20,000 bases of DNA from Chiloscyllium plagiosum (Eukaryota). Positions 2,620 to 20,000 of this stretch are shown piece by piece. Location: contig NC_057718.1 in NCBI RefSeq assembly GCF_004010195.1, positions 99,182,060-99,202,059 on the forward strand. Reading direction: 5' to 3'. How positions within the stretch are numbered: the stretch's first letter is position 1; every line of letters begins with the position of its first letter. The position numbers and the translations under genes are program-made. The notes beneath the pieces were generated by a model. It was not told the origin of the DNA, did no database searches, and was given only the letters and a program-made list of their open reading frames with translations.

Positions 2620-3085
2620 TATAGAGCCACAGAGGTGTATAACACAGAAACAGACCCTTTGGTCCAACTTGTCCGTATGACCAGATAATTAATCAATTAA
2701 TAATCAATTAATCTAGTCCCATTGGCCCATATCCATCTAAACCCTTCCTATTCATATACCCGTCCAGATGCCTTTTAAATGCTATCATTGTACCAGCCTC
2801 CGCCACTTCCTCTGGCAACTCATTCCATACACATACCATCCTCGGCATGAAAATATTACCCCTTAGGTCCTTTTTAAATCTTTCCACTCTAACCTTAAGC
2901 CTATGTCCTCTAGTTTTAGATTCCCCAACTTCGGAAAAAGACCTTGGCTATTCACCCTATCCATGCCCCTCATGATTTTATAAATCTCTCTAAGGTCACC
3001 CTCAGCCTCCGATGCTCCAGGGAAAACAGGCCCGGCTTATTCAGCCTCTCCCTGTAGCTCAAACCCTCCAATCCCGGCAACATCC
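2620..3085 (-). mobile_element. CR1/HER1-like LINE, 5'-truncated 3' end
   Basis: ORF 2970-3233(-) contains RMLPGLEGLSYRERLNKPGLFSLEHRRLR; the 3' UTR is homologous to the copies at 5070-5484 and 13745-14178. Confidence 0.9.
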
Positions 3086-5069: not shown

Positions 5070-5484
5070 AGAGAGATTGAATAGTCTAGGGCTGTTTTCT
5101 CTGGAGCATCAGAGGCTGAGAGGTGATGTTATAGAAGTTTATAAAATCATGAGGGGCATGGAAACGATGAATAACCAAGGTCTTTTTCCCAGAGTCCAAA
5201 ACTAGAGGGCATAGGTTGAAGGTGAGAGGAGAAAGATTTAAAAGGGACCTAAAGGGGCAACGTTTTCACACAGAGGGTGGTGCGCGTATGGAATGAGCTG
5301 CGAGAGGAAGTGGTGGAGGCTGGTACAATGACAACATTTAAAAGGTATCTGGACGGGTATATCAATAGGAAGGGTTTAGACGGATATGCTGGCAAATGGG
5401 ACTAGATTAACTTAGGATATCTGGTTGTCATGGGCAAGTTGGACCGAAGGGTCTGTTTCCGTGCTGTACATCTCTATGATTCTA
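5070..5484 (+). mobile_element. CR1/HER1-like LINE, 5'-truncated 3' end
   Basis: Encodes ERLNSLGLFSLEHQRLRGDVIEVYKIMRGM; ends in ggaccgaagggtctgtttccgtgctgtacatctctatgattcta. Confidence 0.9.
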
Positions 5485-7769: not shown

Positions 7770-7955
7770 ATGTGGCACATAATTCAGCCCATTCTGCTCT
7801 TCTAAATGCTGTCCAATTTGACCTGTCACCTGCCTTCTCCCCATAACCTTACAAATTTAACCCTTTTCATTACTTTTCCAATTCCGTTTCTCATCTGTTT
7901 CCACAATCCTTTTTGAAGTGGATTTTAGATTACAAGACATCTTACGTAAAAGTAC
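7770..7955 (-). mobile_element. Very decayed CR1-like 3' fragment
   Basis: attcagccca...cctgccttctccccataacctt...ttttccaattcc pattern of an antisense CR1 3' end; heavily diverged. Confidence 0.35.
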
Positions 7956-7959
7956 TGAT

Positions 7960-8647
7960 TGTAACGAGGTCAGCCAGGTTGATCTCATAGAATATGAGTT
8001 CCCTGATTGGGGCTATTAATCTGGTCCAATCAGGGAGCCCTGGCTGACAGATAAGAACAGGAGTGTGCCAACTGGCTGCCCCTCTTCCGCAGTTACATTA
8101 GCGCCCAGGTGTCTCTGGAAAAGGAGCACGTGGTGTCCACCGACACCCTAGAGTTGTTCAGGGAGAGGTGGGTGCCGCAGGGAGTTGAGTGTATTATTTC
8201 CCCCTCCAACTCTATTTTGATTTGATCCCTGCCCTCCCCTTCACTGTTTGATCACGCAGCATTGCCCTTTGATGTGAAGGGGACGGCTTGTCACAGGCCA
8301 CTCGGGTGTTTCCTTTCTTCCTGGCGGTGGAAATCTGAAGAAAGATTCGTGCACCTTGTGTCTCTCACTGTGTCTCACACCTGTACACACACAACGTGGG
8401 GGCTGGGGGAAATATAAGAAAAAAAAAACAAGAATGTCTTGGTCTTTCTGACAGCTGGCTCTGAGGGAGCTGGATCGGTACCAAGGACTCTCCATGTGTA
8501 ATTAAAAAAAAGAAAAAAAAGAAAAGAAAAAAAGTAAAGAAAAAAAAAGGAGTGTGTAAGGTTCTGTACATCCTGAGAGCTGGTTCTGAGACAGCTGGAC
8601 CAAAGGCGACTTGGTGATGGGATACCAGCCTTCATGGAGTTATTTCA
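7960..8647 (+). mobile_element. Solo LTR (about 200 bp; 7960-8067 + 8557-8647) split by a LINE insertion
   Basis: Begins TGTAAC and ends TTATTTCA (TG...CA with a weak terminal inverted repeat); contains inverted CCAAT boxes and a TATA-like gataagaa. No clean TSD is visible. Confidence 0.6.
8068..8547 (+). mobile_element. 5'-truncated L1/Tx1-like non-LTR retrotransposon with A-rich tails and TSD
   Basis: Open frame 8067-8225 (ANWLPLFRSYISAQVSLEKEHVVSTDTLELFRERWVPQGVECIISPSNSILI*) resembles a Tx1 ORF2 C-terminus. A-tails at 8419-8428 and 8504-8548; TSD aggagtgtg at 8059-8067 / 8548-8556. Confidence 0.75.
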
Positions 8648-9030
8648 CTATCATTTCATTTCTGGTCCTTTTACCAATTACCTCGAATCTTGAATTTTGG
8701 TGAATAGAGAGGCATGTTGCTGAAATGTCCAACTTGCACTAATCAGGGCTACAACACAAGAATGTCACATTTTTAAATCATTGTAACAATTGACACTTTG
8801 AGAGAACAGGATCATGATTGGTTAATACCTTGACTCACATTGGCTGAGGCAATCTTGCTGAGAAAGCAATGTAGATCCTTAGCTCCTGGATAATTCAAAA
8901 AAAGGTGGAAGGCTATTCCTCCTGCTTGCTGAGAATGGGGCCCTGCACATGAATAAGTGACAATTCTAACAAACATAAATGAGACAATTTGTGAATTTAC
9001 AGATTTTACCTTCAACTAATTGTTAGTGTC

Positions 9031-9260
9031 AGCAGAACAGGAATTGCTGGGAAAGCTCAGCAGGTCTGGCAGCATCTGTGGAGAGAAACCAGAGTTAGTG
9101 TTTCTGAGTTACAGGATCAGAACAGTTCTGAGGAACGGTCACTGGACCCCAAGTGTTAAGTTTGATTTTTGTCCACACTGCTGTCAGGCCTGCTGAGATT
9201 TTCCAGCAATTTTTGTTTTTGCTTCTGATTTCTAGCATCTGCTGTTCTTTTAGTTTTTAT
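9031..9260. mobile_element. Old Penelope-like element with decayed inverted arms
   Basis: Imperfect inverted repeat 9042-9074 / 9179-9211; hammerhead remnant CTGAGGA..GGTC-actg-GACC (9128-9150); tail tctgatttctagcatctgc similar to the 2397-2417 tail. Confidence 0.65.
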
Positions 9261-9803: not shown

Positions 9804-9945
9804 GACGGCTATGTGAACCGGAAGGGTTTAAAGGGAACTGGCCCAAAAGTTGGCAAATGGGATTAGATTAATTTAGGATATCTGGTCCGCATGGACGAGT
9901 TGGACTGAATAGTCTGTTTCCATGCTGTACATCTCTATGACTCTA
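9804..9945 (+). mobile_element. CR1/HER1-like LINE extreme 3' fragment
   Basis: Homologous to 5350-5484; ends in gctgtacatctctatgactcta. Confidence 0.85.
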
Positions 9946-9983: not shown

Positions 9984-10060
9984 CTGCCTGAAACATCATC
10001 TCTCCTGCTCCTCGGATGCTGCCTGACCTGCTGTGCTTTTCCAGCACCACACTCTCGATC
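9984..10060 (+). mobile_element. Penelope-like single arm, same family as 2229-2433
   Basis: tgcctgaaacatc...tctcctgctcctcggatgctgcctgacctgctgtgcttttccagca closely matches 2323-2384. Confidence 0.7.
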
Positions 10061-11984: not shown

Positions 11985-12610
11985 TTTACATTCCTAGCTT
12001 TATATTCAATTCCACTTGCAATGATCTGTAACTTTCTTTCCTGAAACACAACATGCACAAGGCTACAGAGATCCTGTGTCTTAGAGCGCTGCAATCTCTC
12101 ATGACTTAAATAAAATGCTTTTTAAAATTCTTCCTTCGCCAATTTGACATGTTTGCACATTGTACACTATTTGCCAGATCTTTACCCATTCACTTAACCT
12201 ATCTCTACCTCTTTGTAGTCTCTCCTTCTACCCTCTTCACTATTTATTTTCCTCTCCATCTTTGTGTCACCAATAAAGTTAGTACCATTCCTCTGGTTGT
12301 TTCAGCCAAGCCATGTGTATTAATTGCAACTGAGGTTATCAAATGGAAAATGACCCATTTATGCCTGCTCTCTGTTTGCGTGCCAACCTCCCAGCTGGAT
12401 AAATATGTTAGCCCCTACCTGATGAGCTTGAATTTTCCGTGGTATCCTCTGATGTGACACCTTATCAAATGCTTTCTGAAAGTTTAAGTACAGTACATCT
12501 ATTAATTCCCTTTATTAACAACACAAGTTAACTCAGCAAGAAAATCCACTAAATTGGCTAAGCATGATTTCTCTTTCTCTGAAGCCATGTTGACTCAGCA
12601 TGATTAGCTC
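11985..12610 (-). mobile_element. Ancient CR1 LINE reverse-transcriptase region (decayed)
   Basis: Minus strand around 12420-12600 gives SQHGFRE... and DVLYLNFQKAFDKVSHQRIPRKIQAH, the CR1 RT motifs QHGF and DFxKAFDKV. Confidence 0.85.
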
Positions 12611-13744: not shown

Positions 13745-14178
13745 AGTCATAGAGTCATCGAGATGTACAGCACAGAAAGAGACCCTTCAGTCCAACTCAT
13801 CCATGCCGACCAGATATCCCAACCTAATCTAGTCCCATTTGCCAGCACTTGGCCCATATCCCTCTAAACTCTTTCTATCCATGTACCCATCCAGGTGCCT
13901 GTTAAATGCTGTAATTGTACCAGCCTTCACCACTTCCTCTGGCAGCTCATTCCATACACAGACCACTCTCTGCGTGAAAAAGTTGCCCCTCAGGTCCCTT
14001 TTAAGTCTTTCACCTCAAACCTATAACCTCGAGTTTTGGATTCCCTCACCCTGAGGTAAAAAAGCCTTGGTTTTCACGCTATCCATGCCCCTCATGATTT
14101 TATAAACCTCTATAAGGTCACCTCTGAGGCTCCAGGGAAAATCGTGCTGACCTATTCAGCTTCTCCCCAGCAACGTCC
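13745..14178 (-). mobile_element. CR1/HER1-like LINE, 5'-truncated 3' end
   Basis: Reverse complement of the same family as 5070-5484 (agtcatagagtcatcgagatgtacagcac...ctcatgattttataaacctctataaggtcacc). Confidence 0.9.
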
Positions 14179-14280: not shown

Positions 14281-14505
14281 CTTTACAGAAGCACCTGATG
14301 TTTGTAGCTCTGTGTGTGTGTGTGTGTGTGCGTGTGTGTGCATGTGTTTGTGTGTGTGTGATCGGAGGTTGCTGGACAAGAAACTACATGCAAATGGCAA
14401 TATATACCTGCACTCACAGAATAGGCCACCCATAGCTTTGTTTGTGATGAGTCAGAAGGTACACTCTGTTGTGTCAGAGGGTGGGCAGGAGCCAGGAGTT
14501 CACCA
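14281..14505 (+). repeat. Left arm of a long inverted repeat
   Basis: 14361-14420 matches the reverse complement of 15360-15419 at 58/60; homology extends to ctttacagaagcac on one side and to ...gagggtgggcagg...cacca on the other. Confidence 0.9.
14311..14360 (+). repeat. Imperfect (TG)n microsatellite
   Basis: About 25 dinucleotide units with a few interruptions. Confidence 0.95.
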
Positions 14506-15274: not shown

Positions 15275-15466
15275 TGGTGGAGTTCTGAGCCCTGCCCACC
15301 CTCTGGCACAACAGAACGTACCTTCTGACTCATTACAAACAAAACCATGGACAGCCTCCTCTGTGAGCGCAGGTATACATTGCCATTTGCATGTAGTTTC
15401 TTGTCCAGCAACCTCCGATTACACATGAAAAGCTACAAATATCGGGTGCTGTGTGCTTCTGTAAAG
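15275..15466 (-). repeat. Right arm of the long inverted repeat
   Basis: Reverse complement of 14281-14505, lacking the expanded (TG)n. Confidence 0.9.
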
Positions 15467-15689: not shown

Positions 15690-16568
15690 AGTACTGAGGG
15701 CAGGACTGTAACATCGTACTGAGGGCAGGACTGTAATGCCGTGCTGGGGGCAGGACTATAACACTGCACTGAGGGCAGGACTGTAACACTGTAATGAGGG
15801 CGGGACTGTAACGCTGTACTGGAGGACGGGACTGTAACACCATACTGGGGCCGGACTGTAACACTGTTCTGAGGGTGGGATTGTAACACCGTACTGAGGG
15901 CAGGACTGTAACACTGCACTAAGGGCAGGGCTGTAACACCGTACTGGGGTGGGACTGTAACGCTGTACAGAGGGCGGGACTGTAACACAGTACTGGGGCC
16001 GGACTGTAACATCGTAGTGGGGGTGGGACTGTAACACCGTAGTTGGGGGTGGAACTGTAACACCACTCTGGGGGTGGGACTGTAACACTGTACTGAGGGC
16101 AGGACTATAACACCGTACTTGGGGAGGGACTGTAATGCTGTAATGAGGGTGGGACTGTAACGCCGTACTGGCGGGCGGGACTGTAACGGCATACTGAGGG
16201 TGGAACTGTAACGCTATACTGAGGGCGGGACTGTAACACTGTATTGAGGGCAGGAATGTAATGCCATACTGCTGTGGGGACTGTAACACTGTACTGGGGG
16301 CAGGACTGTAACGCCACACTGAGGAAGAGACTCTAAAGCTGTACTGGGCTGGGGTATGTAATGCCATCTTGGAGTGGGGACTGTAAAGTCACACTGGGGA
16401 CAGGTCTGTAACACCGCACTGAGGGCGAGTCTGGAACGCTGCACTGAGGGCAGGACTGTAACATGTACTGCTGTGGGGACTGTAACGCCATATTGGGGTG
16501 GATACTGTAATGTCGTACTGTGGGCGGAACTGTAATGCTGCACTGAGGATGGAACAGTAATGCTGTAA
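15690..16568. repeat. 25-bp tandem satellite, subfamily A (consensus approx. CTGTAACACTGTACTGAGGGCAGGA), about 35 diverged units
   Basis: ggact(g/a)taa recurs at 15703, 15728, 15753 and onward (period 25). Confidence 0.95.
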
Positions 16569-16589
16569 GAGCCAAAATAATACTATATT

Positions 16590-19500
16590 AAGGAAAACAC
16601 TATAATACTGTATTGAGAGAGCAAAAGCAATGCTGTACTGAGGGAGAGACTGTAATGCTGTAGTGAGGGAGACACTGTATCACTGTGCTGAGGGAGAGAC
16701 TGTAACGCTGTGCTGAGGGAGATACTGTAATGCTGTACTGAGGGAGACACTGCAAAGCTATACTGAGGTAGATGCTGTAATGCCGTATTAAGGGAGACAC
16801 TGAAGTGCTGTAGTGAGGGAGACACTGTAATGCTGTACTGGGGGAGACACTGTAATGCTGTACTGAGGGAGACACTGTAATGCTGTACTGAGATAGATAC
16901 TGTAATGCTGTAGTGAGGGAGACGCGGTAATGCTGTAGTGAGGGAGACATTGTAATGCTGTACTGAGAGAGACACTGTAATGCTGTACTGAGGGAGACAC
17001 TGTAATGCTGTACTGAGATAGATACTGTAATGCTGTAGTGAGGGAGACGCGGTAATGCTGTAGTGAGGGAGACATTGTAATGCTGTACTGAGAGAGACAC
17101 TGAAGTACTGTAGTGAGGGAGACACCGTTATGCCGTACTGAGGGAGACATTGTAATGCTGTACTGAGGGAGACATTGTAATGCTGTACTGAGGGAGACAC
17201 TGTAATGCTGTACTGAGGGAGACACAGTAGCACTGTGCTGAGGGAGGGACTGTAGTGCTGTAGTGAGGGAGACACTGTAATGCTGTACTGAGGGAGACAC
17301 TGTAGTGCTGTAGTTTGAGAGACACAGTAATGCTGTACTGAGGGAGACACTGTAGCACTGTGCTGAGGGAGGGACTGTAATGCTGTAGTGAGGGAGACAC
17401 TGTAATGCTGTGCTGAGGGAGAAACTGTAATGCTTTAGTGAGGGAGACGCGGTAATGCTGTACTGAGGGAGACACTGTAATGCTGTAGTGAGGGAGAAAC
17501 TGTAATGCTGTGCTGAGGGAGACACTGTAATGCTGTAGTGAGGGAGACGTGGTAATGCTGTACTGAGGGAGACACTGTAGTGCTGTACTGAGGGAGACAC
17601 TGTAATGCTGTACTGAGGGAGACACTGTAATGCTGTACTGGGAGAGACACTTTAATGCTGTACTGAGGGAGACACTGTAATGCTGTACTGATGGAGAGAC
17701 TGTAGAGCTGTAGTGAGGGAGACACTGTAATGCTGTGCTGAGAGAGACACTATGATGCTGTACTGAGGGAGACATTGTAGTGCTGTAGTGAGGGAGACAC
17801 GGTAAGCTGTACTGAGGTAGATACTGTAATGCTGTAGTGAGGGAGACGCGGTAATGCTGTAGTGAGGGAGACACGGTAATGCTGTACTGAGGGAGACACT
17901 GTAGCACTGTGCTGAGGGAGAGACTGTAATGCTGTGCTGGGGGGAGACACTGTAAAGCTATACTAAGGTAGATGCTTTAATGCTGTATTGAGGGAGACAC
18001 TGTAATGCTGCACTGAGGGAGACACTGTAATGCTGTATTGAGGGAGACACTGTAATGCTGTACTGAGAGAGACACTTTAATGCTGTACTGAGGGAGACAC
18101 TGTAATGCAGTACTGAGGGAGAGACTGCAGTGCTGTAGTGAGGGAGACACTGTAATGCTGTACTGAGAGAGACACTGTGATGCTGTACTGAGGGAGATAT
18201 TGTAGTGTTGTAGTGAGGGAGACACGGTAAGCTGTACTGAGGTAGATACTGTAATGTTGTACTGAGGGAGACACTGTAGCACTGTGCTGAGGGCGACACT
18301 GTAATGCTGTACTGAGGGAGACACTGTAATGCTGTGCTGAGGGAGACACTGTAATGCTGTAGTGAGGGAGACGCAGTAATGCTGTACCGAGGGAGACACT
18401 GTAGCACTGTGCTGAGGGCGAGACTGTAATGCTGTACTGAGGGAGACACTGCAATGCTGTACTGAGGGAGAGACTATAATGCTGTAGTGAGGGAGACCTG
18501 GTAATGCTGTAGTGAGTGAGACACTGTAGTGCTGTAGTGAGGGCGACATTGTAATGCTGTACTGAGATAGATACTGTAATGCTGTGCTGAGGGAGATACT
18601 GTAAAGCTATACTGAGGTAGATGCTGCAATGCTGTACTGAGGGAGACACTGTAATGCTGTAGTGAGGGAGACACTGTCAACCTATACTGAGGTAGATGCT
18701 GTAATGCTGTGCTGAGGGAGACACTGTAATGCTGTAGTGAGAGAGACACTTTAATGCTGTACTGAGGGAGACACTGTAATGCTGTACTGAGAGAGACACT
18801 GTAGCGCTGTACTGAGGGAGACACTGTAGTGCTGTACTGAGGGAGACAATGTAATGGTGTACTGAGGGAGACACTGTAGTGCTGTACTGAGATAGATACT
18901 GTAATGCTGTGCTGAGGGAGATACTGTAAAGCTATACTGAGGTAGATGCTGCAATGCTGTACTGAGGGAGACACTGTAATGCTGTAGTGAGGGAGACACT
19001 GTAGTGTTGTAGTGAGGGAAACACTGTAATGCTGTACTGAGGGAGACACTGTAAACCTATACTGAGGTAGATGCTGTAATGCTGTGCTGAGGGAGACACT
19101 GTAATGCTGTAGTGAGAGAGACATTTTAATGCTGTACTGAGGGAGACACTGTAGTGCTGTAGTGAGGGAGACACTGTAATGCTGTACTGAGAGAGACACT
19201 GTAGCGCTGTAGTGAGGGAGAAACTGTAGTGCTGTAGTGAGGGAGACACTGTAATGCTGTACTGAGGGAGACACTATAAACCTATACTGAGGTAGATGCT
19301 GTAATGCTGTGCTGAGGGAGACACTGTCATGCAGTACTGAGAGAGACACTGTAGCGCTGTACTGATGGAGACACTGTAGTGCTGTACTGAGGGAGACAAT
19401 GTAATGGTGTACTGAGGGAGACACTGTAGTGCTGTAGTGAGGGAGACACTGTAATGCTGTACTGAGAGAGACACTGTAGCGCTGTACTGATGGAGACACT

Positions 19501-20000
19501 GTAGTGCTGTACTGAGGGAGACAATGTAATGGTGTACTGAGGGAGACACTGTAGTGCTGTAGTGAGGGAGACACTGTAATGCTGTACTGAGGGAGACACT
19601 GCAATGCTGTACTGAGGGAGACACTTTAATGCTGTAGTGAGGGAGACGTGGTAATGCTGTAGTGAGTGAGACACTGTAGTGCTGTAGTGAGGGAGACACT
19701 GTAATGCTGTACTGAGGGAGACACTGCAATGCTGTACTGAGGGAGACACTTTAATGCTGTAGTGAGGGAGACGTGGTAATGCTGTAGTGAGTGAGACACT
19801 GTAGTGCTGTAGTGAGGGAGACACTGTAATGCTGTACTGAGGGAGACACTGCAATGCTGTACTGAGGGAGACACTTTAATGCTGTAGTGAGGGAGACGTG
19901 GTAATGCTGTAGTGAGTGAGACACTGTAGTGCTGTAGTGAGGGAGACACTGTAATGCTGTACTGAGGGAGACACTGCAATGCTGTACTGAGGGAGACACT
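16590..20000. repeat. 25-bp tandem satellite, subfamily B (consensus CTGTAATGCTGTACTGAGGGAGACA), about 136 units, runs off window end
   Basis: Uninterrupted 25-bp periodicity with recurring variant units; 125-bp higher-order repeat at the right end. Confidence 0.98.

Follow-up and report, generated by a model that had tools for sequence, protein, structure and literature searches.

The 3' end of a LINE lies within an LTR-like repeat in the 20,000-nt window (the whole stretch of DNA that was analysed) and is followed by a second, diverged stretch of LTR sequence, which raises the question of how this compound 3' end arose. The initial annotation had proposed that a Tx1-like element targets a short word of this LTR and that it brought the extra stretch with it from a donor seated at the same position in another LTR copy. 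Our leading explanation, which we hold at about even probability, is likewise that a 5'-truncated Tx1-related LINE sits at a 13-nt word within a solo LTR-like repeat, on its TATA-like box, and that 8429-8503 was carried in by 3' transduction from a donor at the same word. The features of the locus are as follows.

7951..8066, + strand: 5' half of the LTR-like repeat, very abundant and about 0.24 kb long when empty (from contig boundaries)
8006..8057, + strand: predicted promoter-like motifs, ATTGG at 8006, CCAAT at 8026 and an A-rich TATA-like box at 8050-8057 (from motif positions)
8054..8067, + strand: target word copy 1, left target-site duplication (from the direct repeat)
8067..8219, + strand: final 50 codons of ORF2 with their stop, in a 5'-truncated Tx1-related LINE (from BLASTP)
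8220..8418, + strand: LINE 3' UTR, without the continuation found in most RNA reads of the family (from RNA reads)
8419..8428, + strand: first A-run, ten A (from the sequence)
8425..8437, + strand: target word copy 2, 10/13 identical to copy 1
8438..8506, + strand: piece A, LTR sequence from the target to ATTAAA (from joints and depth)
8504..8548, + strand: second A-rich tail with G/GT interruptions (from the sequence)
8543..8556, + strand: target word copy 3, the right duplication if piece A was transduced, 11/13 identical to copy 1
8557..8601, + strand: piece B, a second, rarer LTR version after the target, without an equivalent of 8477-8500 (from alignment)
8602..8653, + strand: 3' end of the LTR-like repeat (contig stops at 8647)

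The Insert Is Related to Tx1 LINEs

The LINE copy is 5'-truncated and 351 nt long, with an open frame at 8067-8216 (a 49-aa piece) and a stop at 8217-8219. Its Tx1-like identity, first proposed in the initial annotation, was borne out by protein comparison. The window peptide matched the C-terminus of the Xenopus Tx1 ORF2 (P0013) in BLASTP (E 1e-6, 33% identity over 42 aa, falling at residues 1251-1292 of 1308), and profile comparison with the same C-terminus gave a probability of 99.9%. A full HMMER scan with the peptide returned nine matches with E <= 0.001, namely three whale shark models, one bamboo shark model, one eel immunoglobulin-type protein (P0006), which was treated as a chance match, and four others. 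The shark relatives suggest that the host is itself a shark. P0011 was found via an alignment of the query with six hits or cluster members; it is 53% identical to the window peptide and 41% identical to the Xenopus Tx1 ORF2 over 99% of its length (E 1.5e-138), and its matches to RVT_1 and zf-RVT are weak and below the Pfam cut-offs. Against an L1-type ORF2, that of Polypterus (LORF2), the peptide gave no match (best E 1.3), and the 49-aa piece belonged to no family in Pfam and gave no matches in a word-index protein search. An APE-type endonuclease, a reverse transcriptase and a C-terminal zinc knuckle are absent from the truncated copy. Features of the Tx1 type, i.e., 5' truncation, an A-rich tail and a target-site duplication, are present, and the sequence comparisons support the placement of the insert among Tx1-related LINEs.

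No relatives of the ORF2 were found in viral and prokaryote genome contigs, and the LINE UTR motif was not found in metagenome contigs. Local folding of the 3' UTR was no better than that of shuffled sequences (z -0.75). A bamboo shark CutA gene model (P0007) contains about 40 residues of this LINE's ORF2 end, as an exonisation or a mis-predicted exon. A description of this shark Tx1 family was not found in the literature outside Repbase entries and subscription papers.

The Host Repeat Resembles a Short, Dispersed LTR

The fit of contigs to the repeat starts at 7952/7956 with unrelated left flanks in 788 and 756 contigs, respectively (run X1; flank agreement 0.35-0.4), and ends at 8647 with unrelated flanks in 515 (X1), 210 (X3) and 382 (X11) contigs, as counted in three DNA runs among 24 of 1,939 rows listed. 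The repeat is dispersed, has sharp ends and carries promoter-like and poly(A)-like motifs, and from this anatomy we infer that it is a short, dispersed LTR. No internal gag-pol was seen in the window, which holds a single LTR copy, and neither a partner LTR nor an internal region was found there; further copies of the LINE piece or of the LTR were also not found in the window. With either choice of boundary, no duplication of host DNA surrounds the LTR. At its ends, 5 of 155 places depart from the family majority, going by the 40 difference rows listed (of 292). In metagenome contigs the LTR motif gave one match, which lies in GC-rich bacterial-type DNA and was read as chance, and viral contigs gave none.

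The segment 8000-8036 of the LTR forms an imperfect palindrome (30/38) that encloses both opposed CCAAT-type motifs. At 8620-8799, organism B matches the right end of the LTR and its flank at 178 of 180 positions, and the LTR insertion is therefore common to both organism labels. A search of 7800-8800 against Rfam returned nothing above threshold, which indicates that the target is not a known small-RNA gene; an snRNA target was rejected on these grounds.

Insertion at the LTR Site Is Very Probably Recurrent

Among the 12 junction rows listed (of 604), six join LTR positions 8052-8066 to the LINE interior, with LINE breakpoints at 8138, 8232, 8236, 8237, 8257 and 8286, and in none of the 12 is the LINE connected to the LTR 5' half at a different place. 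The six LTR-to-LINE junctions span two organism labels and all have one orientation. The joint from 8060 to 8257 was recovered from X1 as well as X3, its short side being 55 letters long; one of the six junctions is well anchored, the other five being listed without anchor lengths, and the rows at 8236 and 8237 are possibly one event or a misalignment. The junctions fit independent 5'-truncated insertions at one site and in one orientation, and we consider it very probable that the LTR site is a recurrent target for the LINE family.

Exclusive targeting is another matter. Plain LTR sequence continues past 8066 in 633 X1 contigs, most sampled LTR copies being empty at the site, and in summed depth the LINE end is no lower than the LTR, although this is a poor measure of copy number. 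The empty LTR contigs and the high LINE depth argue against exclusive targeting, and it is doubtful that the family is essentially restricted to this site. The counts cover 5' junctions, as contigs break at the tails. In one X3 row (8428 to 8195), a further LINE piece comes after the LINE tail, and the spacer between them does not resemble the target. The proposed LTR targeting thus held up as recurrent insertion; a strict, family-wide specificity would go beyond these junctions.

These counts also bear on whether there is any true sequence-specific targeting at all. The TATA-like word might instead be an A-rich hot spot for an abundant LINE with little selectivity, or two LTR loci might have recombined to give the locus. 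Such readings would fit the great abundance of both families, the predominance of empty sites among the LTR copies sampled and the lack of a host duplication around the LTR. However, all six listed LTR-to-LINE junctions fall within 8052-8066 in one orientation, and Tx1-clade endonucleases are often specific according to the available portions of PMC4494074 and PMC1950540, so that we regard such a hot spot or recombinant as rather improbable. If the LINE targets this word as tightly as the listed junctions imply, the locus would add a Tx1 family of shark type whose defined 13-nt target lies at an LTR promoter, and with it a suitable substrate on which a new sequence-specific endonuclease could be assayed.

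The Locus Contains Three Copies of the Target Word and Two Tails

A perfect 9/9 direct repeat was found at 8059-8067 and 8548-8556. Around it, a 13-nt word occurs three times (8054-8066, 8425-8437 and 8543-8555), with identities of 10/13 between copies 1 and 2, 11/13 between copies 1 and 3 and 10/13 between copies 2 and 3, and the target is better read as this word than as the 10-nt word first proposed. Copies 1 and 3 resemble each other most (11/13, with the 9/9 core), as a true duplication would predict. The other elements of the compound end were likewise confirmed as initially annotated, namely the A-run (8419-8428), the ATTAAA, a poly(A)-signal-like hexamer (8501-8506), the second A-tail (8504-8548) and the 9/9 target-site duplication. 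The second tail contains 39 A in 45 nt, with interruptions at a period of 13-14 nt. It starts at 8504 and overlaps the hexamer, rather than following it at a spacing of 10-30 nt.

Family RNA Mostly Leaves the Window Copy Before the LTR Sequence

If 8429-8503 were present in all copies of the family, it would be a fixed, captured 3' UTR, as pointed out in the initial annotation. This was not so. Among 275 RNA reads at 8409, 128 leave the window sequence at 8418 and 81 at 8412, both groups on non-LTR sequence, and only four of the 275 reach 8445; a fixed captured 3' UTR was therefore rejected, and the window copy lacks the common 3' continuation of its family. The 128 reads leaving at 8418 share a single continuation (agreement 0.9), which by eye forms a 9-bp stem with a 6-nt loop and is possibly a 3' recognition structure of the LINE family. 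The RNA reads contain at least two types of 3' end for the family, the stem-loop-like continuation (128 reads) and the A-run; A is found at 8418 in 37 of the 45 reads that cover this position.

Two Versions of the LTR Follow the LINE

The likeness of 8448-8476 to 8573-8601, on which the proposal of an extra LTR copy was built, was confirmed at 24/29, the next best 29-mer in the whole window on both strands reaching 18/29. Random 112-nt slices of the window (1,910 in all) scored at most 31 in local alignment, compared with 40 for the observed match. Over the longer stretch of 8425-8476 against 8543-8601, there are 39 matches and 13 mismatches (of 52) and one 7-nt gap.

Piece A is ordinary LTR sequence, its clear LTR likeness beginning at 8445-8446, whereas 8438-8444 aligns poorly. 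Of the 15 best-supported joints (of 770), 12 link 8053-8066 to 8446-8457 and none links it to 8557, and the depth of piece A is 190-340 times that of piece B. Piece A, rather than piece B, resembles the common type among the LTR family copies. The bases of piece A that are absent from the local LTR were also found to be genuine family sequence, given that contigs joining 8476 to 8607/8608 carry about 33 letters in between; a shared loose end in front of 8608, which on inspection by eye agrees with 8477-8503, is present in 305 (X1) and 249 (X11) contigs. Run X3, which differs from X1 in sample and study, contains a contig of 190 nt that matches 8447-8636 without a difference. This shows that the compound 3' end is real and occurs in a second sample, and an assembly artefact was rejected.

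The divergence between the two pieces bears on an old local tandem duplication of the tail, the target and an LTR stretch, produced by slippage between the tail and the AATAAA-like run and followed by decay and two deletions. The microhomology would account for the start of the second tail, and the 5 differences in the 29-nt core have a P of 0.14-0.62 at 5-10% divergence per copy. However, the 13 mismatches in 52 and the 7-nt gap give a P of 1e-5 to 1e-3 at 3-5% per copy and reach 0.13 only at 10%, with the 3-5% estimate of age resting on 40 of 292 difference rows listed. As the LINE is younger than the LTR and the LTR ends are little diverged, we judge such a duplication very unlikely, and the earlier statement that the copy is too diverged for a local duplication is upheld if the locus is as young as the LTR ends suggest. 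By sequence, the most likely sources of pieces A and B are two LTR copies that had each been connected, at the same word, to a LINE tail.

3' Transduction Is the Leading Explanation for Piece A

Whether piece A itself arrived by 3' transduction is, in our estimate, an evenly balanced question. Under this explanation, the endonuclease of the element would nick the 13-nt target word, and a donor would have sat at the same word in another LTR copy. With its 3' end shrunk to ten A's, the donor would have been read through into the LTR flank, and reverse transcription would have started at a tail joined to the AATAAA-like hexamer of that LTR, be it by unusual polyadenylation or by a template switch between two LINE RNAs. 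The product would then have been inserted at the same word here with a duplication of 9-13 nt, and the recipient LTR would separately have lost about 27 nt. In line with a transduction, flank DNA lies between two A-tails, inside the duplication and outside the consensus end of the family.

Several observations speak against it. The second tail begins inside ATTAAA, while transductions normally end 10-30 nt past the signal according to the available portion of PMC13009371. The deletion in piece B ends exactly where piece A stops, a coincidence that transduction leaves unexplained. Finally, it is piece A and not piece B that resembles typical family copies. The second tail may moreover be encoded by the element instead of being a fresh poly(A), as the 13-14 nt pattern and a similar GT interruption in the tail of another copy (the X3 row 8428 to 8195) suggest, and an element-encoded tail would hint at a template switch or at a patch.

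In a second parse, 8438-8506 may be native and the tail together with 8549-8601 imported, which needs no deletion. Here, the LINE duplication would consist of target copies 1 and 2. About 98 nt (LINE tail, target and piece B), copied from another LINE-LTR junction, would later have entered the AATAAA-like site with the help of microhomology between A-runs, either to patch a DNA break or by a transduction of the orphan type. A single event would then account for the tail within the hexamer, for the apparent deletion and for the LTR picking up again precisely at 8602-8605. Indeed, an intact LTR results when 8506 is connected to 8605, the stretch lacking in piece B ending where piece A stops, and if 8067-8437 and 8507-8604 are excised, a complete repeat of 234 nt remains in which every part of the family is present. 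The standing of piece A as the common type (12 of the 15 top joints of 770, depth ratio 190-340) points the same way, and break patches are known as class 2 templated sequence insertions (PMC5110952, in the text available). However, copies 1 and 2 of the target differ at 3 of 13 positions and copies 1 and 3 at 2 of 13, a likelihood ratio of about 2.5-4 in favour of transduction at 3-5% per copy. The imported segment would have no 3' poly(A) and a duplication of 3 nt at most, and the G common to 8067 and 8556 would be due to chance. We therefore consider the patch unlikely, though a serious competitor.

The beginning of LTR likeness at 8445-8446, which in the family register is about 30 nt past the TATA-like box, also raises a stacked second insertion, in which piece A and its tail would be a short LTR transcript, running from close to its start site as far as the hexamer, retroposed in trans by the LINE protein at the same word. 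The three target copies do alternate with two tailed inserts. Yet, at 10/13 to each of the others, copy 2 of the target has diverged furthest, the position of the tail and the deletion in piece B stay unexplained and no clustered RNA starts were found, which makes a stacked insertion the least credible of the explanations considered. Even taken together, the alternatives other than the patch are improbable.

Transduction of piece A thus remains our leading explanation, and the earlier proposal that the donor was read through to the LTR poly(A) signal has about even odds: the flank lies between two tails and is not fixed in the family, but the tail starts inside the hexamer and a parse free of deletions exists. 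Under either transduction or patch, the extra piece records a second LINE-LTR junction and lends modest independent support to recurrence.

The LTR Promoter Could Plausibly Drive the LINE

A full-length copy at this site would lie in sense orientation just past the TATA-like box, and its transcription from the LTR, in the manner of the promoter hijacking proposed initially, is plausible, as judged from this arrangement; the truncated copy here is uninformative on this point. RNA reads are sense-biased over both families, and no RNA source containing the stretch itself was listed. Only seven of 1,788 are at least 99% alike, and no clusters of RNA starts or ends were listed, so that the reads are uninformative on the locus and on promoter use. 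A closed LTR-to-LTR cycle, in which the LINE would use the promoter and the poly(A) signal of the LTR and its read-through RNA would carry the target word, seems quite unlikely to us. If it were true, the target word in the RNA would pair with the nicked DNA and steer insertion to another LTR, and the LINE would live wholly off the expression signals of the LTR while silencing the LTR promoter.

Comparison With Known Systems

Two crocodilian Tx1-clade LINEs, Tx1-8_Crp and Tx1-4_AMi, prefer LTRs (PMC4494074, Kojima 2015, in the text examined), where a family is regarded as target-specific when one sequence type makes up >20% of its flanks. The host group and the LTR family differ from those described there, and neither the position within the LTR nor 3' transduction of LTR sequence is reported for the two elements in the examined text of that study. 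Tx1L of Xenopus laevis, the ORF2 of which is P0013 ("Transposon TX1 uncharacterized 149 kDa protein"), has a homologous ORF2 C-terminus. In the available portion of PMC1950540, Tx1L inserts at one site in another transposon by means of a specific endonuclease, which nicks almost only its target. This target is the DNA transposon Tx1D, in contrast to the LTR found here.

The compound end is like the transductions of L1, R7Ag and R1Bm, as far as the available texts describe them, in that two A-runs enclose flank-like DNA and are followed by a target duplication. A two-tail read-through RNA has been described for L1 (PMC3649969, in the portion available), and for the site-specific R7Ag a shorter poly(A) tail gave 3' transduction, which is also known for R1Bm (PMC7265360, in the portion available). 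Unlike in the available accounts of these three elements, the tail lies inside the hexamer here, and the target repeat itself forms the flank. Class 2 templated sequence insertions, which patch a break from a distant locus without canonical duplication or poly(A), have been described in humans, according to the available text of PMC5110952. No Tx1 element with a TATA-box target in an LTR was found in the literature outside Repbase. Since both the LTR preference of Tx1 LINEs and transduction by site-specific LINEs are already published, the locus is a new example and no new principle.

Other Features of the Window

A perfect 76-bp inverted repeat with a 1-nt spacer occupies 2229-2381, its retroposon-like end recurring at 9031-9086 and 9985-10046; it is either a fold-back insertion or an assembly artefact. 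Copies of the 3' end of another abundant retroposon lie in both orientations at 2622-3050, 5071-5484, 9804-9945 and 13750-14132, one of the four being free of weak tblastn hits and non-Tx1 in pattern. A separate weak RT-like match was found at 12368-12493 (E 0.02). Two 151-nt inverted arms (14355-14505 and 15275-15425) with 87% complementarity, separated by 769 nt, may delimit a non-autonomous DNA transposon. From 15691 to 20000, a 25-nt minisatellite with two unit variants (about 34 and 136 copies) extends over more than 4 kb and runs past the end of the window.
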